A stretch of 64,000 bases of DNA. Source: a virus. A model generated the notes under the pieces. That model had not been told where the DNA came from, did not search any database, and saw only the letters and a list, made by a program, of their open reading frames with translations. A program made the translations under genes and the position numbers. The number at the start of each line of letters is the position of its first letter. The stretch's first letter is position 1. Positions 1,196 through 52,102 of the stretch are shown in pieces. Where the stretch lies: IMG/VR virus record IMGVR_UViG_3300044797_000318, positions 64,001-128,000 of that record; one strand, 5' to 3'.

Positions 1196-1545
1196 TGGTG
1201 GACGGCAGGGGAGTCGAACCCCTGTCCAAAATGCGAAAAATCAAAAGTCGTTACAGGTTTGGTTGATTAATGTAACCAACAACATTTGTAAATATCGCTT
1301 TACTAGCTATCTACTGTTTATTTAGTCGCTAATTCCGTAGCCAAATTAGAAACGAGCTTTTGTGGGTTTATGCCTCTACCAACTACCAAAACAATCTTAT
1401 TGGAGAGACACCAATTAGGCTGCTAGAGCCATTGGGGCTGCGTTATCGTTTGCAGTTACGTTTGATTGTTTTTTTTATAGGGATACAATCATCCCTAACC
1501 TGCGTTTTAATCTTTCTTACACCTTGTCGAAACCGGGAGCCGCCC
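1196..1545 (-). ncRNA. ssrA: tmRNA, one-piece, tag peptide ANDNAAPMALAA
   Basis: 5' GGGCGGC pairs with 3' GCCGUCC-ACCA including a G3:U wobble; T-arm AGGGG-UUCGACU-CCCCU; tag frame GCA AAC GAT AAC GCA GCC CCA ATG GCT CTA GCA GCC TAA at 1453-1415. Confidence 0.95.
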
Positions 1546-42943: not shown

Positions 42944-43315
42944 TCAAGAAAATACGAGATAAATTTTGAGTTTATTATATAATTTATTTTTGTCGGAAAA
43001 ATCTATTGTAAAATATGGAATAGTGGTAATAAACCATCTATGTTGATCAAAAATAGAAAAATTACATAAATTATAATTATAAGATATAAAACAATCATTA
43101 CAACTAAAAGCAAAACCAGTATGCTTGGTCTCTCCGATACTATTCTGAGAATAATAAATTAGAAACCTTTCTTCACAAAAACGACAAGTCAAAGCCTCTA
43201 CATCCGATCTTGTTCCATTTGCAAGATCTGACGAGCTTGTATGAGAGAAATCAATATCTCCTTCACAATAAAGGCATCTAGGGTTATCCATATTAATCAG
43301 CTCATGCATCATCAA
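42944..43315 (-). CDS. Zn-binding protein with KLKIYLVFS tail
   Basis: CLYC, CRFC; shared C-terminal motif. Confidence 0.6.
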   Translation of the reverse strand: MMMHELINMDNPRCLYCEGDIDFSHTSSSDLANGTRSDVEALTCRFCEERFLIYYSQNSIGETKHTGFAFSCNDCFISYNYNLCNFSIFDQHRWFITTIPYFTIDFSDKNKLYNKLKIYLVFS

Positions 43316-43617
43316 TTTTGATCTTTCTCGGGCTCAAACTCTAATGTTCCGTCCACAAAGCGATCATATATTTCTTGATGAATACTCCACGGATCTTTCC
43401 GCCCAAATGATAAAGCACCACCAGTATACATCATCCTTCCGATAAGAACTTCATCACATCGCAACTCTGTTAGCTTATCGCATAAATATTGGCCTGCATA
43501 ACATACCTCTCGAATAATAGGGTTTTGCGCCAAATTGACTGGCATTTTTGGATCATTATCAATTTTTTCTGACCAACGAAGAATATCTTCGTTCGTCACT
43601 GAATTAGGTCTTGGCAT
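43312..43617 (-). CDS. hypothetical protein
   Basis: ORF with AAGGA RBS. Confidence 0.6.
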   Translation of the reverse strand: MPRPNSVTNEDILRWSEKIDNDPKMPVNLAQNPIIREVCYAGQYLCDKLTELRCDEVLIGRMMYTGGALSFGRKDPWSIHQEIYDRFVDGTLEFEPEKDQN

Positions 43618-43627
43618 TTATTCCTTA

Positions 43628-43855
43628 TCACTTGAAAACTTGTAGTCTGGCTTTTCTCATTTCATCAGCCATTTTATAGGCCACCATCGCTATGCGCTCT
43701 TGGCGTGCCTTGGATCTCTTTTGATAATCCTCATCCCACATTTCATTATCAATAATGTTGGAACAAGTTCCTTCTTTGGTTATCAAGGCTTGCATGGCAG
43801 CGATAGCAAATTGATCCCGCAAACGCAATTCCTTCTCATCATCTTCCACTGACAT
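43628..43855 (-). CDS. conserved small phage protein
   Basis: LRDQFAIAAMQALI...AYKMADEM pattern; GAGGA RBS before ATG 43855. Confidence 0.7.
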   Translation of the reverse strand: MSVEDDEKELRLRDQFAIAAMQALITKEGTCSNIIDNEMWDEDYQKRSKARQERIAMVAYKMADEMRKARLQVFK

Positions 43856-43871
43856 TTTATTCCTCATCAAT

Positions 43872-44104
43872 TTTGGGTAATGCCGGCTTTCTCCCCGGCT
43901 TTGGTACACTTTTCCACAGGTGCAAAAGGGTTCTTGCGAACCGTCTGGGGCTGGGCGTGAGGAGTTCCTACGGAACCGCTCTGGTGTCAATTCACCTCGT
44001 CAAAGGAGGTATTCTTCCTCCTACCACAGCTCTACTAACGAATCGGCTAGCTCACTTTTAGATTATTGCTAACCTCAGCTAAATTAGTAGAGGGATTACC
44101 CAAA
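43872..44104 (-). ncRNA. candidate structured ncRNA (~233 nt), family not recognised
   Basis: 10-bp closing stem TTTGGGTAAT/ATTACCCAAA with several internal helices, two capped by GCAA tetraloops. Confidence 0.7.
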
Positions 44105-44145
44105 TCTTATTCTTCATTTGCTATAAAAACAAAAATAGCTTCTTA

Positions 44146-44235
44146 TCAAAATAAGAAGCGTGCGATGGTGATACATCCAACAATAATGGTGTCTAACCAA
44201 ATAACAAGGCCTAAGGCGGCAAGAAAGTCTTTCAT
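44146..44235 (-). CDS. 29-aa hydrophobic peptide
   Basis: MKDFLAALGLVIWLDTIIVGCITIARFLF; AGGAAG upstream. Confidence 0.45.
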   Translation of the reverse strand: MKDFLAALGLVIWLDTIIVGCITIARFLF

Positions 44236-44250
44236 CTTTATCTTCCTGTA

Positions 44251-44325
44251 TGGTATCCCCAACTGGAATCGAACCAGTACTGTTTGTTTCGAAGACAAAC
44301 GTGATATCCGTTTCACTATGGAGAC
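44251..44325 (-). tRNA. tRNA-Arg(TCG)
   Basis: TTTGT-CTTCGAA-ACAAA arm; CCA. Confidence 0.9.
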
Positions 44326-44336
44326 ATATACTTACT

Positions 44337-44421
44337 TGGTGCGCCTGGTAGGAGTCGAACCTACTATGGGTTTCCCCGCTTGTTTCGTAGACAAGGGCCT
44401 TATCCGTTAGACTACAGGCGC
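44337..44421 (-). tRNA. tRNA-Arg(ACG) with long variable arm
   Basis: CTTGT-CTACGAA-ACAAG; variable arm GGG-GAAA-CCC; CCA. Confidence 0.88.
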
Positions 44422-44432
44422 ATTTTCTTACT

Positions 44433-44511
44433 TGGTATTCCCGGTCCGATTCGAACGGACATCGATCCAATTACGGTGCTCAGAGGTAGAAGCTCTGTCC
44501 GATACGGGAAC
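44433..44511 (-). tRNA. non-canonical D-armless tRNA-Arg(TCT)-like RNA
   Basis: Acceptor GTTCCCG/CGGGAAT; 7-nt linker; CAGAG-CTTCTAC-CTCTG; 20-nt extra region; perfect T-arm; ACCA. Confidence 0.75.
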
Positions 44512-44520
44512 ATACTTACT

Positions 44521-44595
44521 TGGTGATCCTAATGAGGGTCGAACTCATTCCTGAACCTTGAGAGGGTTCCGACCTAGCCGGTAGTCGATAGGACC
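44521..44595 (-). tRNA. tRNA-Glu(CTC)
   Basis: GAACC-CTCTCAA-GGTTC; CCA. Confidence 0.9.
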
Positions 44596-44640
44596 ATCGT
44601 GTATATTATATCACGATATTAGTTGATCTAAAATCAATTA

Positions 44641-45123
44641 TTAGGGTCTGCCGTCTTCACAACCTGCCTTGTCGGACGGACAATACATAGTTTGCAGAGT
44701 TTCGGGCTCTACCAACATAACACAATAGTTGAGGGAAGAACCGCATCTTTTCAGGGCCGATCTTTCTTTACCAGTAAAAGCGGCATAATTGATGCTGGTA
44801 CCACCCGCTTGCAGTGGGCCGGAACAAACTTGACGGCTTTGCGCAATAGGTAGTCCGCCTTCCTCAGCATAGAAGGTTATACGAACGCAAGAGTTAGCGG
44901 TGCTTTTCCCAGCAATAGCCGGCCATTGATTGATAAAACCACAACGAACCCACACTAACTTGTCATTGACTTCTTCATCTGTGCAAGACCAAGAGTTGAC
45001 GCCATTAGTGCCTCGAGCTACAAACATAGTTCGATGTTGTGGATTTTCAATAGCAGTCGGTGCTTGCCGCGTTTGAGCGCCACAACCTGCCAACAATAGA
45101 AGTGTGAATAATAGATATTTCAT
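44641..45123 (-). CDS. putative lipoprotein
   Basis: Lipobox LLAGC; Cys-rich. Confidence 0.7.
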   Translation of the reverse strand: MKYLLFTLLLLAGCGAQTRQAPTAIENPQHRTMFVARGTNGVNSWSCTDEEVNDKLVWVRCGFINQWPAIAGKSTANSCVRITFYAEEGGLPIAQSRQVCSGPLQAGGTSINYAAFTGKERSALKRCGSSLNYCVMLVEPETLQTMYCPSDKAGCEDGRP

Positions 45124-45197
45124 GATCTTACCTTATAAAAAAGAAAATTATTGAACCCAGTTCAGCGTGTGTTATATTGCACAGCAGAGGTTCAATT

Positions 45198-45884
45198 ATG
45201 AAAAACATAGAACAGTGTAAAGCCAAAGAATTACGAAGTCAAGGAATGTCCATCAAGACAATTGCCAAAGAATTAGGTGTGTCAGCCGGCTCGGTTAGCG
45301 TATGGGTGAGAGATATCGAATTATCGCCGGAACAAATTGAAACCCTCAAATCACAGAACGCCATTTACGATAATCAACATAAAGGAGCCAAGGCTCGTCA
45401 ATTACAAGCTAGACAACAAAGATTACGATATCAGGAAGAGGGCAGAATAAAAGCGAGAGAAAAAGATCCGCTACATATGGCAGGATGTATGTTGTATTAG
45501 GCAGAAGGGTCCAAGAAAAGAGTAAGTTGTGAATTTTCTAATTCAGAACCGCATATGCTAAAAATGTTTTTACAATTTCTATATCAGTGTTATGGTATAA
45601 CCAAAGAACAAATAAAAATACATATAAATTGCTATACAACCAACGGTATTAGTGTAGAGGAGATAGAAAAATATTGGGCAGACAATCTAGATATTCCTAA
45701 AAGTTGTTTTGGCAAAACCACTACCGATAACCTATCAAAATATTCTTTACAAAAGAAAGCTAAAAACAAACTTCTATATGGAACTGTAAAAATCAAAGTT
45801 TTCAAAAGTGTATGGCTCGTCCAAAATATATTTGGAGCTATTCAAGAATATGCTAATTTCAATTCAGAATATTGTGTTGATTGA
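45198..45884 (+). pseudogene. HTH plus LAGLIDADG-like endonuclease interrupted by an in-frame TAG at 45498-45500
   Basis: GCMLY*AEGSKK (expected LYWAEG) joins two track ORFs in the same frame. Confidence 0.75.
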
Positions 45885-45888
45885 TATT

Positions 45889-45962
45889 TGGTGACCCGTA
45901 ACGGTTACGATCCGATGTTCAAGAGTTGAAAACACTTTGTCCTACCATTAGACGAACGGGCC
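45889..45962 (-). tRNA. tRNA-Glu(TTC)
   Basis: Anticodon loop TT-TTC-AA; variant T-loop ATCGTAA; CCA. Confidence 0.82.
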
Positions 45963-45966
45963 ATTA

Positions 45967-46043
45967 TGGGGTGTCGTACGAGTTTTGATCTCGTCAAAGA
46001 ATGAGTCACAGTCATCCGGGTTCGCCAGCTCCCTCACGACACC
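45967..46043 (-). tRNA. tRNA-His(GTG) with encoded G-1
   Basis: G-GTGTCGT/ACGACAC-C-CCA; loop CT-GTG-AC; T-loop ATCAAAA. Confidence 0.85.
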
Positions 46044-46100
46044 ATATGGTAATATTATTGCTTACTTATTAGTATATATCATCCTAACCACAGAGGTTTC

Positions 46101-47315
46101 ATGCCTTACACCGCAGAACAATTGCTAAAAATTAGCCATAACTATGAAAAGATAGGAACAAATTCTTTGGTGTCAAGTGCTAAGGGAAAAGAAAAGAAAA
46201 AATTAGACCCCCACGCCAAAGTTCGCAATAGAGGATATGTGTGCGTTCCAGCTGAAAAAGCACTTGATCATAAGGATCATTTTCCGGCAAATGATGAAGC
46301 TCAGGCTCGTAATGCCTTAGCCCGTGTGCACCAATATAGCAGTGCCCCCTCGTGGTATAAGGGAAGTCTCAAAGGTTTGCAAGATTTAATTAGTCGTAAA
46401 GTACATTCTAAATATCCAGGCATCAGCAAAGATAAGAAATCTAAAAAATCTTCTGTGGAAATAAGTGACGTCTTGTTGAACAAATATTCACAAACGGCTA
46501 CCCCCACTGTCAATGTAGAAGATTTACCTAAGGCTTCTGCCCCGACCAAAGCACAATATCCTACTATCGACAAAACATTCCAAGTTATATTGGGTGTGGA
46601 TCCCGATGGATCTTTGGGGCCGATCACTCAAAAAGCCTTGGATGCTTATAAAGCAAAAGTAAATCCTAATAACCCTACTATGAATAATCAATTGGCATTC
46701 GAGTTTCTCAAAAGAGAGCCACAATACCAAACTAAACAACTTTTACCAGCCAACCAATCTTCGATAACTAATGCTGCAACTCAATCTATTCAATTATTAG
46801 AGTCTATCGCCCAAGTATTTGCACGAGTTGGAAGCAACGGATTAGGCGAACAAGACAAGCAAATCATCAACACCTTTATCGAACAATATAGCGGATTGCG
46901 AGAACAATTGGGTAGAGAGCAGTTGAGCATCAAAGATACTGATCAAAACGCCTTCAATCAAGCCGAAGGCACTCTTTTTCAAGCATATAAAATGATCAAA
47001 GAATTAGCTCAAATGTCGGGAATAGCTTGGGGAGGAAACTCTATTTCTAGAACTAATCGTACTGCCACCAGTGTAGATAATTTGATCGCTAAATACGCGT
47101 CAGTAAGCGAAATAACAAGTTTATTGAATAGATATGAAGGTACCGGAGCTTTTTTGAGAGACTTGGCCAAAGCACAGTTTGAATTGGTGGGATTGGACCA
47201 AAACCAGGAACCCGAAGAAAATTGGAAGACCGAATACGAAAGTTCCAAGAAGCTTCACGATATGATTATGGCATTTGCCGATCAAGTGGAAGCTGAAGAA
47301 TCTAAGTATTGGTGA
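46101..47315 (+). CDS. hypothetical protein with peptidoglycan-binding-like motif, possibly virion-associated
   Basis: QVILGVDPDGSLGPITQKALDAY. Confidence 0.55.
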   Translation: MPYTAEQLLKISHNYEKIGTNSLVSSAKGKEKKKLDPHAKVRNRGYVCVPAEKALDHKDHFPANDEAQARNALARVHQYSSAPSWYKGSLKGLQDLISRKVHSKYPGISKDKKSKKSSVEISDVLLNKYSQTATPTVNVEDLPKASAPTKAQYPTIDKTFQVILGVDPDGSLGPITQKALDAYKAKVNPNNPTMNNQLAFEFLKREPQYQTKQLLPANQSSITNAATQSIQLLESIAQVFARVGSNGLGEQDKQIINTFIEQYSGLREQLGREQLSIKDTDQNAFNQAEGTLFQAYKMIKELAQMSGIAWGGNSISRTNRTATSVDNLIAKYASVSEITSLLNRYEGTGAFLRDLAKAQFELVGLDQNQEPEENWKTEYESSKKLHDMIMAFADQVEAEESKYW

Positions 47316-47339
47316 TTGGGTAGGAATTGCACTTTCATT

Positions 47340-47421
47340 TGGTAGTGGTAGAGGGACTTGAACCCCCACGGTTTCCCGCTCGACCCTAAATCGAGTGCGT
47401 CTGCCATTCCGCCATACCACC
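47340..47421 (-). tRNA. tRNA-Leu(TAG)
   Basis: CTCGA-TTTAGGG-TCGAG; long variable arm; ACCA. Confidence 0.92.
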
Positions 47422-47423
47422 AT

Positions 47424-47507
47424 TGGTCTCATCGGAGAGAGTCGAACTCTCACACCTTTCGGCATATGCACCTCAAGCATACGTGTCTGCCATTCCACCA
47501 CGATGAG
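47424..47507 (-). tRNA. tRNA-Leu(GAG)
   Basis: TATGC-TTGAGGT-GCATA; long variable arm; ACCA. Confidence 0.92.
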
Positions 47508-47510
47508 CTG

Positions 47511-47587
47511 TGGTGCGCGAGATGGGAGTCGAACCCACAAAACTTATTTTTTGAGAATAATACGTATGCCTATTCCGTCACCCGCGC
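47511..47587 (-). tRNA. tRNA-Leu(CAA) with short variable loop
   Basis: TTATT-CTCAAAA-AATAA; variable region only GTTTT; ACCA. Confidence 0.85.
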
Positions 47588-47607
47588 GCTCTAATATATC
47601 CTGTTAT

Positions 47608-48075
47608 TCACAGATGTTTTTTCTTTACATCATAGAACTTACTATAAAAATGATAGCTAGCATTATCCCAAGGCCCTATACAAAAAGTATCCTCTTTGAC
47701 TATTTTTTGAGCGGCCTGAAAAATTTCGGAGGCAATTCCCCGTCTTCGATGTCCAGGCTCAATGAACACTTGAAATAAGTAGCCGTCTTGTTTTCTAAAA
47801 ACGGAATCAAGAGAACCCTCAGTAAACTCAAAATTGCTATCTTCTTTGGATAAAAGACCCCATCCTACCAAACTTCGGAAGCGATAGGCCAAAAACACTT
47901 TACAATCGAGATGGCGAGTTATGGCTTCTTTCAACATCCAATCTAATTCGTAATTGAGGCCCGAAGTAGGGCCAAGAGTCAATAAGCGAAGTTTTCCTAT
48001 AAGATCTGGTTGGTTGGCCACTAAATTGAAATCTACAACTCGAATTGTTAGCGTCAACCAATTTATTAGGTTCAT
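47608..48075 (-). CDS. GNAT acetyltransferase
   Basis: VFIEPGHRRRGIAS; ASYHFY. Confidence 0.8.
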   Translation of the reverse strand: MNLINWLTLTIRVVDFNLVANQPDLIGKLRLLTLGPTSGLNYELDWMLKEAITRHLDCKVFLAYRFRSLVGWGLLSKEDSNFEFTEGSLDSVFRKQDGYLFQVFIEPGHRRRGIASEIFQAAQKIVKEDTFCIGPWDNASYHFYSKFYDVKKKHL

Positions 48076-48102
48076 AGCTTATATAATATGAATAAGAAGA
48101 TT

Positions 48103-48186
48103 TGGTAGGAACGATCGGACTTGAACCGATAAACCCGAAGGCGAGCACTTTTAAGGAGCTTGTGTTTGCCATTTCACCACGTTCCC
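48103..48186 (-). tRNA. tRNA-Leu(TAA)
   Basis: Loop CT-TAA-AA; variable arm with CC-TTCG-GG; ACCA. Confidence 0.9.
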
Positions 48187-48223
48187 ATGCGATACATTAT
48201 ATATCGCACCTTATTAGTAGGTT

Positions 48224-48739
48224 TTACTTACCGCAACTGGCAGAACAAGCTGTATTGTCAGCCTGACACTTATCGAAAGCCGTTTGACATTCGCAAAGAC
48301 AAGCTGCACGATCCTTCTCTTCACATTGAGAAGTGTCATTGCAGAAAGCCTCACAAACACATTTTTGTGCATTGCAATCTTGTGGCTGGCAAGCATCGGG
48401 CTCTGCATGAGAGTCGGAACCGGGGTTAGAATCGACAGGTGGATTAGAGTCCACAGGTGGTTTGGTGTCAGTGGGCGGGGCCGTATCTTTGACCGTTACC
48501 ACATCATCGTTGATATTGCTATCGCTGTGATTATCACAATCCGCCTGATCATTACCATCGGTATTGTTACTGGAATCAACAGTCCCTGTTTCTGGGTTGC
48601 TGTTGGTATCTTCCAGACCTGAATCAGTAGTTCCGACATTAGCATCATCGTCGGTAGGAGGAATGATATCAGCTGAGGAGCCACATCCTGCCATCAGGCC
48701 AGTGACTAAGATCAATTTGATCAATGTTTGAGTTCGCAT
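48224..48739 (-). CDS. Asp/Thr-rich, Cys-rich lipoprotein
   Basis: Lipobox LMAGC; low-complexity linker; Cys-rich C-terminus. Confidence 0.72.
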   Translation of the reverse strand: MRTQTLIKLILVTGLMAGCGSSADIIPPTDDDANVGTTDSGLEDTNSNPETGTVDSSNNTDGNDQADCDNHSDSNINDDVVTVKDTAPPTDTKPPVDSNPPVDSNPGSDSHAEPDACQPQDCNAQKCVCEAFCNDTSQCEEKDRAACLCECQTAFDKCQADNTACSASCGK

Positions 48740-48771
48740 GTTTTTATTTCCTTGTATAATAGTTGTTTGGT

Positions 48772-49836
48772 TTAGTTGGTTGCATCAACAGAAGAGAAGG
48801 TGACCACGAACTCTACTCGACGATTACGCTCACGACCTTCTTTAGTCGTATTAGGGGCGGACGGATGAGCAATGCCCATTGGGGCGCCCACCAATCGAGC
48901 AGCATCGACACCATGATCCACCAGATATTGTTTGACCGCAACGGTGCGTTGGGCAGATAATACCTCATTGTGAGCTAGTTGACCCTCAGAAGATGCGTGA
49001 CCCTCAACCTTCATAGCCAACTTAGGATGAGCTTGGAATTGTTTGACCACCACATCCAACTTATCACGAGATTCCCAACGTAGAGTGGCCTTATCAAAAT
49101 CGAAATAGACCTTCTCAATTAGATTGAGTTGATCTACTTCCTTGGTAGCCACCGGAGTAGGGCAAGGTTTGTCATCGTCATGCACGTCCACAAAAGAGAC
49201 AGTATTGACATTGTGCGTCTTTACCCTTGGGGTAGTTGGAGCATCAAAGGAGAAGGAAAGACCAACCTGCAACAAGTTGACATCGCTTCGATTGAGCTCA
49301 ATATTACCGAATGCGTTCTCATTGGTGTTGTCAGCGGTTTGGAAAACGTGAGTATAACGCACGAAAGGACCTAACCAGAAAATATGATTCTGATCCAGAG
49401 GCATCTCACCACCAATTCCAACATCACCTGCTGGTAGCACTAGGCCACCAGTATCGGCTGCCATCAAATCCACGTCAACCCAAGGAGAGAATTCCCCGAG
49501 AAATCGATTATGGTAAGAAGCTCGACGATCTGTTTGCAATCGTACGGAACCACCGAACTGCCACAGTACGCCCGCATTCTGCCCATTATCAGTGGCACGT
49601 GGTAGATACATAGTAGAAACAGAGGGACCAATAGCAAGGTTAGGAATCAAGGTAAACATCCCCTTAGCTCCTAAAGCCAAACCAGGATCATAAATACCGC
49701 TTTGTGGAGAAGATAGCGGAATGACTACACCGGGTTCCAAATGTAAACTGAAGGAGTTGTCCGCAGAAGCGGTACCAGTAATAGTTGTGAGAAGGGCAGC
49801 GGTTGTTGCTGCTAAAATAGAGAAATGTCTTATCAT
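48772..49836 (-). CDS. OmpA-family outer membrane protein
   Basis: Signal peptide, beta-barrel-like N domain, VYFDFDKA, VEGHA, NEVLSAQR, GRERNRRVEF. Confidence 0.92.
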   Translation of the reverse strand: MIRHFSILAATTAALLTTITGTASADNSFSLHLEPGVVIPLSSPQSGIYDPGLALGAKGMFTLIPNLAIGPSVSTMYLPRATDNGQNAGVLWQFGGSVRLQTDRRASYHNRFLGEFSPWVDVDLMAADTGGLVLPAGDVGIGGEMPLDQNHIFWLGPFVRYTHVFQTADNTNENAFGNIELNRSDVNLLQVGLSFSFDAPTTPRVKTHNVNTVSFVDVHDDDKPCPTPVATKEVDQLNLIEKVYFDFDKATLRWESRDKLDVVVKQFQAHPKLAMKVEGHASSEGQLAHNEVLSAQRTVAVKQYLVDHGVDAARLVGAPMGIAHPSAPNTTKEGRERNRRVEFVVTFSSVDATN

Positions 49837-49878
49837 TGAAAATCCTTATAATGTGAGGTTGAAAAATTCCTGAAAAAT

Positions 49879-50368
49879 CTAAACACGAAACGAAGAACCG
49901 TCAAGGCGGGGGTCAACAAAAATAATTTCACGACCCACATTTTTGGCGTATTCCACGCAGTTAGCTGTGCCGCCTTTCGATCCATCCCATACGGCAATCA
50001 ATTTATCGCAATGGTCAACCATCCACTCATTACGAATTTGCATTTTATAAGCAGCATAACCGCCATCACTAACAATAACTTCTTCGGAGGCTAGCTTGCG
50101 TAAAAGCCGATATGTTTTTTGACTGACCTCGGGCCACGCCATCTCTTGCCCCTCAAAAGGAATGCAAGCTACTAATGGAATACGAAGTTTGAGGCAAACA
50201 CTGGCAAAATATTGATCGGTACCTAAGGCCATACCCGACAAACATTTTTCGGGTTTCATTTCCAATAATAGCCTCTCAATTTCTCGGCAAATTTTATTAT
50301 AGGTTGGATTAGGTAATTTGTATCCACCGATTTTTTGTCGGCCTGGATCCCGTGATTGCTATTATCAT
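49879..50368 (-). CDS. YspA/SLOG family protein, frameshifted in an A6 run at 50331-50336
   Basis: MIIAITGSRP then shifted frame KIGGYKLPNP...SGMALGTDQ...RNEWMVD...WDGSKGGTANCV. Confidence 0.8.
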
Positions 50369-50640
50369 TTTTGTATGGTTACTTGTTCGTGTGCTTGCAT
50401 CTCTTCCGCCTCAATCAATTGCATAAACTCATCGTGAATTTCTTGCGACTCGTTGTTGCGCTGAATGTAAAACAGACCTACCGATTGCTCGCCTAACAAA
50501 CCCAAGAACTCATACTTGACTTTGACCTTGCCAACAATAATGGTGTTGATAGCGGAGGCGAAACTAGCCATTTCATCTTCACTTTGGAAGAGGTGAGCGG
50601 CTGGTAGATTGACTAATATTTCCTTGGGTTTGATTTTCAT
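50365..50640 (-). CDS. hypothetical protein
   Basis: ORF with GGAGG RBS. Confidence 0.55.
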   Translation of the reverse strand: MKIKPKEILVNLPAAHLFQSEDEMASFASAINTIIVGKVKVKYEFLGLLGEQSVGLFYIQRNNESQEIHDEFMQLIEAEEMQAHEQVTIQK

Positions 50641-50641
50641 C

Positions 50642-51286
50642 TTACACCTCCACAACAACAGGCAAATTTTCTGGTTTATAATAATCGGTGCAGACAGCAG
50701 CATTGATAAACTTGACGCCATCTCGCTCAACCATTTTACCACCATCACGATGTAAGTGTCCAAAGATATGAACTTTGAGATTAGTTAGTTGCGGCAATCT
50801 CTTGGCCAACAATTCACAACCCTGACTACCAGCTTGAATGGTGTCATCCAAGATACCATAAGGGGGACAATGAGTAATCAAGATATTAGTGTCCTCGGGG
50901 ATCATATCCCATTTTTGAGATAGTTCATCACCATTTCGTGGTAAGTTCCACTCCCAATCATGAAATGCCGGTTGCCAAGGAGAACCATAGAAGTAAAAAT
51001 TATTTATTCTTGCACTCTTATCTTCAAGATAAAAAGATCCAGTATCATCAAACATTTGAAGGGCAATGTTTCTCTTTTGTTCATTACGAATGCCAAGCTC
51101 ATGATTACCACAAACAATTATTTTATTCTTGTGTGGTAATTCTTTCCACCAATTACAAAAATCGGCAATAATTTCTAATTCACCTCTCCAAGTAATATCG
51201 CCCGCATGAACCAAAATATCACCGTCAGGAACAATAATATTACGATGATATGAGTGTGTATCGGAGATTGCTACTATTGTTGTCAT
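50642..51286 (-). CDS. metallophosphoesterase
   Basis: SDTH, HAGD, GNHE, THCPP, FGHLH. Confidence 0.9.
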   Translation of the reverse strand: MTTIVAISDTHSYHRNIIVPDGDILVHAGDITWRGELEIIADFCNWWKELPHKNKIIVCGNHELGIRNEQKRNIALQMFDDTGSFYLEDKSARINNFYFYGSPWQPAFHDWEWNLPRNGDELSQKWDMIPEDTNILITHCPPYGILDDTIQAGSQGCELLAKRLPQLTNLKVHIFGHLHRDGGKMVERDGVKFINAAVCTDYYKPENLPVVVEV

Positions 51287-51486
51287 TCTAATTCCGTTTT
51301 TATTGAGATTCCATCTACTACTGGCGAAACAAGTTTTCTAATTTTATTATCTATTTGATGGGCCATCATAACGATACCAAAACCGTCATCCGTAGAAATA
51401 ACCACACTGGAACTATACCAAGCATATTGGGAATACTTCATCTTCAATTTCAGGCGAACTTGATTGGCTTCCTTGAAAGTAGACAT
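51283..51486 (-). CDS. hypothetical protein
   Basis: ORF with AGGAG RBS. Confidence 0.6.
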   Translation of the reverse strand: MSTFKEANQVRLKLKMKYSQYAWYSSSVVISTDDGFGIVMMAHQIDNKIRKLVSPVVDGISIKTELE

Positions 51487-51496
51487 AGCAGCTCCT

Positions 51497-52102
51497 TCAA
51501 CTAAAAAGTATATAGGTTTTTATTTTATCTATCAGACTATCTTGATCAGAATAATCCCAAGTGGTTAGTGGCAACTTCAATACTAATTTTCGAGGGGTAT
51601 AATCATCAAGTTTGTATATCACAGTAACATCTTGGAAAAAATCTAAAGTAATTTGATATTCAGGAATATCTCGCCGAAACAACGAGATACATTCTTGTTC
51701 TAACCCAGTATTGAATATATTTCCATTAACTGACTCAAACTCTACATCTAGGGTCGATACCCAAGTATGATGACAATTTTGACAACTAGCATTGATCCAA
51801 AAATAAAAATAACGACTTGTGTCCTCATTTGGATTTATTGTTACACAATGATCGGGATACGGCCGATCTTTTATCTCAACTTGATACGTGTTATTATCAC
51901 AGTTGATCTGATATATTGGTAAGCAATTTTTCTTTTTGTTTCGACATTGAATTGTTAGTAAGTGGTTTTCTTTTAGGAAACCAAGGCACTCAAAATTTGG
52001 ATCAGGTCCCACCGATAAGTCTATGGTTCTAGTATCTTTTTGACACAGAGGACAAAATAAACAATGATCCCAAAGTTCTTGAAGTGTATTGAATATTTTC
52101 AT
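51497..52102 (-). CDS. Cys-rich protein with KIKTYILFS tail
   Basis: CPLC, CQNC; shared C-terminal motif. Confidence 0.6.
   Translation of the reverse strand: MKIFNTLQELWDHCLFCPLCQKDTRTIDLSVGPDPNFECLGFLKENHLLTIQCRNKKKNCLPIYQINCDNNTYQVEIKDRPYPDHCVTINPNEDTSRYFYFWINASCQNCHHTWVSTLDVEFESVNGNIFNTGLEQECISLFRRDIPEYQITLDFFQDVTVIYKLDDYTPRKLVLKLPLTTWDYSDQDSLIDKIKTYILFS

Follow-up and report, generated by a model that had tools for sequence, protein, structure and literature searches.

A conserved family of phage tRNA-Arg(UCU)-like RNAs with a D-loop-like sequence on the 3′ side of the anticodon arm

The 64,000-nt window analysed here (positions 64,001 to 128,000 of IMG/VR virus record IMGVR_UViG_3300044797_000318) contains a 79-nt tRNA-Arg(UCU)-like gene at 44511..44433 on the minus strand, the encoded CCA included. 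This gene, hereafter called the rewired gene, appears to lack no part of a canonical tRNA-Arg and to have one block, composed of the D-stem 5′ strand and the D-loop, moved 3′ of the anticodon arm. It is practically certain that the gene encodes a conserved structured RNA of this class. The explanation favoured here, to which we assign a probability of about 0.75, is that it represents a working tRNA-Arg for AGA codons with a non-cloverleaf wiring of the core; such a tRNA would probably read AGG as well. The evidence consists of a conserved family of homologs, four helices, anticodons for arginine only, an invariant A after a GG dinucleotide, the genomic setting and the codon demand, and the three-dimensional fold, charging and decoding of the RNA are predicted from it.

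Sequence elements of the rewired gene

The elements pointed out in an earlier sequence-only reading of this region, namely the stems, the linker, AAUUGGA, the anticodon UCU, the ACCA end and the neighbouring tRNA-Arg genes, are all present when the minus strand is read. From its 5′ end, the RNA (44433-44511, minus strand) consists of GUUCCCG, UAUCGGA, CAGAG-CUUCUAC-CUCUG, AGCACCGUAAUUGGAUCGAU, GUCCG-UUCGAAU-CGGAC, CGGGAAU, A and CCA. These correspond to a 7-bp acceptor stem with a G1·U72 wobble pair, a 7-nt linker, a 5-bp anticodon stem, and a 20-nt region with AAUUGGA between the anticodon arm and the 5-bp T stem. RNA position p is found at window coordinate 44512-p, and all elements described below lie on the minus strand.

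The acceptor stem is formed by RNA 1-7 (44505..44511) and RNA 69-75, the latter followed by the discriminator A76 and the encoded CCA (together 44433..44443). The connector U8 A9 U10 (44502..44504) leads to C11 G12 G13 (44499..44501), which pairs with C36 C37 G38 (44474..44476). The resulting 3-bp helix, P2 (11-13:36-38), joins the linker to the 'variable' region and encloses the anticodon arm. By position, the 5′ and 3′ strands of P2 correspond to the 3′ strand (23-25) and the 5′ strand (10-12) of the D-stem, respectively. A single nucleotide, A14 (44498), the probable equivalent of position 26, lies between P2 and the anticodon stem. The anticodon arm (RNA 15-31, 44481..44497) has the 7-nt loop CUUCUAC, with U33 and purine 37 as in canonical tRNA, and carries the anticodon UCU at RNA 22-24 (44488-44490). 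From the anticodon stem, the linker AGCA (RNA 32-35, 44477..44480) leads back to P2.

The 3′ strand of P2 is followed by U39 A40 A41 U U G44 G45 A46 U C G A50 U51 (44461..44473), which is proposed to be a relocated D-loop fused to a variable-loop-like strand, with equivalents of A14, R15, G18, G19, A20 and, at its end, Y48. This UAA..GGA...AU strand, UAAUUGGAUCGAU, runs straight into the T stem GUCCG. The T arm (RNA 52-68, 44444..44460) has the loop UUCGAAU, and GUCCG-UUCGAAU-CGGAC is of the canonical UUCRANY loop form.

Homolog family

A first pattern, based on the odd 3′ region, matched three viral contigs, in which every stem differs and the linker and the D-loop-like strand are kept. Three further scans of viral contigs with patterns in the code of the International Union of Pure and Applied Chemistry (IUPAC), each leaving different parts free, gave 56, 13 and 98 stretches. 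From a total of 109 sources (108 loci and the window), 106 parse as full copies and yield 79 distinct sequences including that of the window (alignment A2). Omitted from the alignment were L104, in which a contig end cuts the copy, L027, which diverges after the T loop, and L066, which has the 3′ part only; L027 is absent from alignment A1 as well. In the partial copy L027:3201-3290 (+), the divergence starts within the T loop or beyond it, and L066:11220-11295 (+) comprises only the 3′ part, starting at the relocated D-loop. Both could be insertions or broken genes.

All homologs derive from pattern scans, which can return no variation at the positions that a pattern prescribes. A32, G33 and A35 were fixed in all search patterns, and CUUCUA and others were fixed too. 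U8 and A9, present in 79/79, were unconstrained in two of the scans, and the P2 strands were assessed in a scan with positions 10-14 and 36-38 free.

The window gene scores 91.7 bits with model R1, of which it is a training member, and aligns with the 78 other distinct homologs; canonical tRNAs score at most 33 bits with this model. Of the 79 family members, 47 encode CCA; 44 have G as the discriminator, 27 have A and 8 have U. One pattern, which matched 98 stretches in viral contigs, matched seven in the genomes of 185,579 prokaryote species (one genome each), all seven on contigs of metagenome-assembled genomes (MAGs) and all scoring as family members. Hence, the class is essentially viral.

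Covariation and the choice of back-pairing

Standard pairs make up 97.5% of the cells of the 22 proposed pairs in the alignment of 79 distinct homologs, as compared with 65.7% in shuffles; neither this value nor the observed covariation score was reached in any of 500 shuffles. When the partners were slid by 1-3 columns, pairing fell to 38-46%. The fraction of paired cells is 99.3% in the acceptor stem, 93.2% in P2, 94.2% in the anticodon stem and 99.7% in the T stem. Changes on both sides occur in 20 of the 22 pairs, including 7/7 in the acceptor stem, 5/5 in the anticodon stem and 4/5 in the T stem. The contention of the sequence-only reading that the gene is not a decay product is therefore strengthened, as compensatory changes were found in all four helices.

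Two back-pairings of the linker had been suggested, CGG with CCG and AUCGG with UCGAU. Of these, the former is both kept and compensated in the homologs, and the latter fails. In P2, pair 11:38 is C-G in 63 and G-C in 16 of the 79 sequences; 12:37 is G-C in 55, C-G in 16 and A-U in 8; and 13:36 is G-C in 59, C-G in 3, U-A in 1 and unpaired in 16. With the strands left free, the combinations found were CGG/CCG (55), GCC/AGC (16), CAG/CUG (4), CAC/GUG (3) and CAU/AUG (1). In the GCC/AGC variant two P2 pairs are swapped and the third is C·A. The forms CGC/GCG and CUC/GAG also occur among the later matches listed. All of the first 44 homologs pair fully at 11-13:36-38 (100%), and three of them have A-U in place of G12-C37. 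P2 is the actual back-pairing helix, and it was accepted because of covariation and not because of folding energy.

The pairing of AUCGG in the linker with UCGAU beside the T stem (9-13:47-51), inside which the D-loop-like sequence would lie together with the anticodon arm, draws on five complementary bases that do exist in the window sequence. It is very improbable, since pairing amounts to 78%, 32 of 44 homologs are unpaired at 11:49, no pair in these homologs changed on both sides, and the G12A variants are compensated at position 37 and not at 48. A D-like hairpin, 35-38:48-51, was also rejected (56% paired, with 36:50 never paired).

Columns 14 and 49 (44498 and 44463) covary strongly, A being found with A or G, G with C, and C with U (mutual information 1.2 bits); position 14 is A in 44, C in 19 and G in 16 of the 79 sequences. 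No helix of the model accounts for this covariation, which may be due to a tertiary contact or a lineage effect.

Proposed relocation of the D-arm elements

When columns 36-47 were moved between columns 9 and 10, with nothing added or deleted, ARAGORN called 79/79 sequences as tRNA-Arg(tct), as compared with 0/79 native sequences in isolation and 1/79 in the locus context. Seven controls with a shifted block or insertion point gave 25-74/79 calls, and the predicted cut alone reached 100%. Restoration of the calls by this transposition indicates that all parts of the tRNA are present and one block is transposed. In effect, such a transposition permutes the D/anticodon domain circularly.

The correspondence with the canonical positions can be followed along the chain. 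Directly after U8-A9, the 23-25-like strand C11 G12 G13 and then the 26-like A14 enter the anticodon stem. C36 C37 G38 (U39), which follow the anticodon arm and AGNA, pair back as canonical 10-12 (13), and A40 A41 (U)U G44 G45 A46 reads as the D-loop A14, R15, Y, Y, G18, G19, A20. U51 enters the T stem in the position of Y48, and there is no separate variable loop. The pair 8:40 is U:A in 79/79, and 41:51 is A:U in 77 and G:C in 2, with no unpaired case, as is typical of an R15:Y48 pair. When left free, the base after GG is A in 93/93 distinct copies among the matches listed.

The conserved family, the P2 covariation and the transposition test all support the reading of this RNA as a topologically rewired tRNA. 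The accompanying term 'D-armless' is misleading, since the anticodon arm is enclosed by a short helix that re-creates the D-stem. At the sequence level, the elbow elements, namely GG, the A14-like A and the R15:Y48-like pair, are retained and not replaced.

In the coaxial stack of a canonical tRNA, one strand is made up of the 3′ half of the anticodon stem and, next to it, the 5′ half of the D-stem. As neighbours in the stack, they could be joined by a short linker, and the L-shape would thereby be kept. In the proposed fold, C11 G12 G13 would pass straight from U8-A9 into the anticodon stem, and C36 C37 G38 would fold back after the 4-nt linker, so that a 3-bp D-stem would be rebuilt and stacked on the anticodon stem. 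The chain would continue as the D-loop-like strand (A40, A41, G44 G45 and A46) and enter the T stem via U51. The normal tertiary contacts are expected to form: U8 would meet the A14 equivalent, GG would contact the T loop, and a pair of the R15:Y48 type would be made. Both the L-shape and the marks recognised by arginyl-tRNA synthetase (ArgRS), i.e. A20, C35 and U36, would then be preserved, and host enzymes would process, charge and use the rewired tRNA.

Arginine identity elements and codon demand

The identity set of bacterial ArgRS comprises A20, C35, U/G36 and A/G73. The window copy has A46 after G44 G45 as the putative counterpart of A20, the anticodon bases C23 and U24, and the discriminator A76; 71/79 family members have A or G at the discriminator. 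When neither the anticodon nor the base after GG was constrained in the scan, an arginine anticodon was found in 93/93 distinct copies among the matches listed (UCU 61, UCG 20, ACG 11 and CCU 1). A search of 88 loci with the family model found CCU and ACG rewired copies too, and the loops UUCCUAA and CUACGAA are present in rewired copies recovered by the family model alone. Three rewired tRNA-Arg genes with the anticodons ACG, CCU and UCU stand in tandem at L024:1175-1539 (-); hence, the rewired scaffold is not limited to UCU. A single rewired copy, L095:1054-1133 (-), scoring 50.2 bits, has the anticodon UAU (Ile AUA) and GGU instead of GGA, and may represent an identity switch away from arginine.

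A canonical tRNA-Arg(UCU) stands alongside the rewired gene in only 2/79 loci. Other tRNAs occur in 61/79 loci, the nearest being within 200 nt in 38/79. In the phage fragment, ARAGORN found canonical tRNA-Arg genes with the anticodons CCU, UCG and ACG and no canonical UCU gene. In the 118 open reading frames (ORFs) of at least 150 aa, AGA accounts for 417/1462 arginine codons (28.5%), the highest share. The rewired gene would complete a non-redundant set of four arginine anticodons for this AGA-rich genome.

Copies in cultured phages

Unannotated rewired copies are present in the genomes of Salmonella phage Felix O1 (NC_005282, 25951-26032; 56.7 bits with model R1, anticodon UCU) and Agrobacterium phage Atu_ph04 (MF403007, 112818-112896; 92.8 bits). 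BLAST with a typical family member matched Atu_ph04 and Stenotrophomonas phage SOVA965. Both the Felix O1 and Atu_ph04 copies share the architecture of the window copy as judged by model R1. In the Felix O1 copy P2 is CUC/GAG, and the linker between the anticodon stem and P2 is 8 nt long, as compared with 4 nt in the window copy. In the Felix O1 genome paper, a tRNA for the over-used AGA codon is expected and none is listed (PMC3185647).

The Felix O1 copy further differs from the window copy in that an HNH endonuclease ORF abuts the rewired gene (NC_005282 25951-26395). Homologs of this HNH protein were found in 3/79 loci. Two of them, L023:10678-11022 and L038:8489-8686, lie within ~400 nt of the rewired gene, and the third, in L105, is ~3 kb away. 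A Pfam scan of the 10 ORFs neighbouring the rewired gene in the window gave HTH, GNAT, OmpA and weak AAA matches only, and no HNH.

Genomic setting

The virus record comprises 138,671 bp with a GC content of 39%, has a transfer-messenger RNA (tmRNA) and many tRNA genes, and is estimated to be 32% complete; hence, the phage is huge. The rewired gene is the second in an array on the minus strand, in the order tRNA-Glu(CUC) (44521-44595), rewired gene, tRNA-Arg(ACG) (44337-44421) and, as the last tRNA, tRNA-Arg(UCG) (44251-44325). The array spacers are 9-11 nt long and all start with AGUAAG, and CCA ends every array gene. Upstream on the same strand, a promoter-like site (TTTAGA, a 16-nt spacer and a TG-extended TATAAT; 44605..44632) ends 9 nt before tRNA-Glu. 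It was identified by consensus match only, two such sites having been found as compared with a mean of 1.5 in shuffles. A terminator-like hairpin with a T run (44138..44159, minus strand) closes the array. Between this hairpin and the last tRNA, a short hydrophobic ORF of ~29 codons with AGGAAG before its start was read by eye at ~44147-44236 (-); it is apparently co-transcribed with the array tRNAs. The neighbouring tRNA-Arg(ACG), called by both ARAGORN and Rfam, comprises 85 nt; its variable region includes a class II-like extra arm (GGGG-AAA-CCC), which is unusual for an arginine tRNA.

A second metagenome run (X2) yielded a DNA contig that spans 44200-44539 with 0 differences, which makes an assembly artefact unlikely. 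Contigs from three RNA runs align only to the tRNA-Glu and tRNA-Arg(UCG) parts and are uninformative on the rewired gene; their flanks diverge from the window, and they are therefore ascribed to other organisms. With default settings, ARAGORN called the array neighbours and left the rewired gene uncalled. Likewise, Rfam tRNA (RF00005) found the neighbours and gave no match to the rewired gene at E≤1 over 43000-51500. Folds offered by ARAGORN at relaxed thresholds, tRNA-Leu(gag) at -ps80 and three low-quality ones in mitochondrial mode, break the conserved anticodon arm and were rejected.

Near and distant BLAST searches of the array against 50,697 phage records gave tRNA-Glu-like matches only. 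No relatives of the upstream 160-aa lipoprotein-like ORF were found in a related-locus search, and for this reason synteny was unusable. An ArgRS gene (PF00750) was not found in the 138,671-bp record, which is a fragment.

Other features related to translation were noted in the record. A tRNA at 45892-45962 (-), detected by Rfam alone (44.9 bits), has the anticodon loop UUUUCAA (UUC/Glu), mismatched stems and the T loop AUCGUAA; the adjoining tRNA-His(GUG) at 45967-46042 (-) was called by ARAGORN alone. The tmRNA gene (1196-1545, minus strand), with the tag peptide ANDNAAPMALAA, lies beside three tRNA-Thr genes. Outside the window, a tRNA with the anticodon CUA is present at C1:61584-61658 of the record, labelled 'Pyl' by ARAGORN (amber suppressor type). 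TAG serves as the stop in only 5/118 of the ORFs of at least 150 aa, and read-through of TAG exposes 82 in-frame TAGs. The phage may recode TAG.

Alternative explanations

Several observations weigh against the interpretation of the gene as a working rewired tRNA. The single-sequence minimum free energy (MFE) has z = -0.58, i.e. the RNA is not singled out by energy; the MFE structure pairs 36-38 with 43-45 and has no P2, and RNAalifold on the 79 sequences gives three long stems and not P2. Helix P2 has only 3 bp, of which 13:36 is C·A in 16/79. Covariation of the R15:Y48 type is confined to 2/79 sequences, the transposition controls are weakly discriminating (up to 74/79 calls), and several 'invariant' positions (A32, G33, A35, CUUCUA and others) were set by the search patterns. 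Furthermore, loci L002 and L004 carry both the rewired and the canonical tRNA-Arg(UCU), and, the record being 32% complete, a canonical gene could lie in the unseen part of the phage genome.

The possibility that the RNA is a decoy had also been raised from the sequence. Such a tRNA-shaped RNA would act outside translation as a sponge that soaks up a host factor, e.g. a tRNA-targeting defence nuclease. Its unusual architecture and virtually phage-only occurrence (98 viral stretches vs 7 in 185,579 species genomes) would suit this role, and phage tRNAs that counter tRNA-cleaving defences have been published (PMC11555353). A decoy would, however, be expected beside a working tRNA with the same anticodon, and a canonical tRNA-Arg(UCU) is present in only the two loci mentioned; the rewired copies supply the arginine anticodon that is missing from the arrays. 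Features of charging and elongation are conserved, namely the acceptor and T arms, the discriminator A/G (71/79), CCA (47/79) and, among the matches listed, the A after GG (93/93). A system targeting tRNA-Arg was not identified in this analysis. Disfavoured by the non-redundant anticodon sets, the decoy is retained as an unlikely rival.

An explanation of similarly low probability accepts a working tRNA-Arg and concerns the reason for the persistence of the design: selection would have favoured the rewiring because it evades a host enzyme (a nuclease or a modification enzyme) that recognises the canonical D-arm, or because it protects the gene from homing endonucleases, which cleave canonical phage tRNA-Arg genes. 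The HNH ORF abutting the Felix O1 copy and the HNH homologs close to the rewired genes in L023 and L038 are in keeping with it. However, such homologs are present in only 3/79 loci, HNH is missing among the 10 neighbouring ORFs scanned in the window, and the data are accounted for equally well by a neutral origin and later spread along with tRNA arrays. The escape rationale is thus attractive but unsupported.

A decayed or rearranged tRNA pseudogene without function, which would agree with the rejection of the sequence by standard finders and with its unremarkable single-sequence fold, is excluded because of the covariation in 79 distinct homologs, whose stems diverge widely while the linker and D-loop-like strand stay conserved and which include copies in unrelated cultured phages.

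Comparison with known tRNAs

The canonical cloverleaf has the order acceptor - D - anticodon - (variable) - T, which the rewired gene fails to follow. Canonical tRNA-Arg(UCU) is exemplified by E. coli argU and T4 tRNA-Arg. The canonical tRNA-Arg(UCU) genes called by ARAGORN at L002:2658-2731 and L004:6838-6914 share with the rewired gene the 7-bp acceptor stem, the 5-bp anticodon stem, the loop CUUCUAA/C, the T arm with UUCGAAU, the AAUUGGA-type D-loop with A after GG, the A/G discriminator and the location in a phage tRNA array. They differ in the order of the parts: in the rewired gene, the D-stem 5′ strand and the D-loop come after the anticodon arm, and a 3-bp D-stem encloses that arm.

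Metazoan mitochondrial D-armless tRNAs, e.g. mt-tRNA-Ser(AGY), similarly have no D hairpin between the acceptor and anticodon stems, and, like them, the rewired RNA is presumed to be working. In the mitochondrial tRNAs the arm has been lost, and they depend on co-evolved factors (PMC4013460). In contrast, the rewired tRNA keeps D-stem and D-loop elements in a relocated form, and the phage that carries it uses bacterial machinery.

In the permuted tRNA genes of Cyanidioschyzon merolae, the 3′ half is placed before the 5′ half, and processing restores a canonical tRNA. As in the rewired gene, the order of the gene parts departs from the cloverleaf by permutation. In the rewired gene, however, the acceptor strands are at both ends, and the permutation is internal, i.e. 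within the D/anticodon domain. Nothing suggests that it is undone, and the mature RNA itself would be non-cloverleaf. Circularly permuted tRNA genes have been reported from this red alga (PMC3978253).

No description of a phage tRNA with relocated D-arm parts was found in full-text searches of literature outside subscription journals. Except in organelles, the cloverleaf arrangement of the arms is, to our knowledge, regarded as universal. As a tentative proposal, which is more doubtful than that of a working tRNA-Arg, the family may constitute a natural non-organellar class of non-cloverleaf tRNAs with a permuted D/anticodon domain. These would be L-shaped, charged by the host ArgRS and restricted to arginine in phages, and would persist by escape from a factor that recognises canonical tRNA-Arg, either a host tRNA-targeting nuclease or a homing endonuclease cutting tRNA genes.

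Significance

If the rewired gene does encode a working tRNA-Arg, only the L-shape, and not the cloverleaf wiring, would be constrained in tRNA. Such a tRNA would account for the AGA tRNAs that are 'missing' from phages, Felix O1 being an example (PMC3185647), and would reveal that tRNA finders have a systematic gap when applied to phage genomes. For RNA engineers, the family would provide a natural permuted, presumably functional, tRNA scaffold tied to one synthetase.

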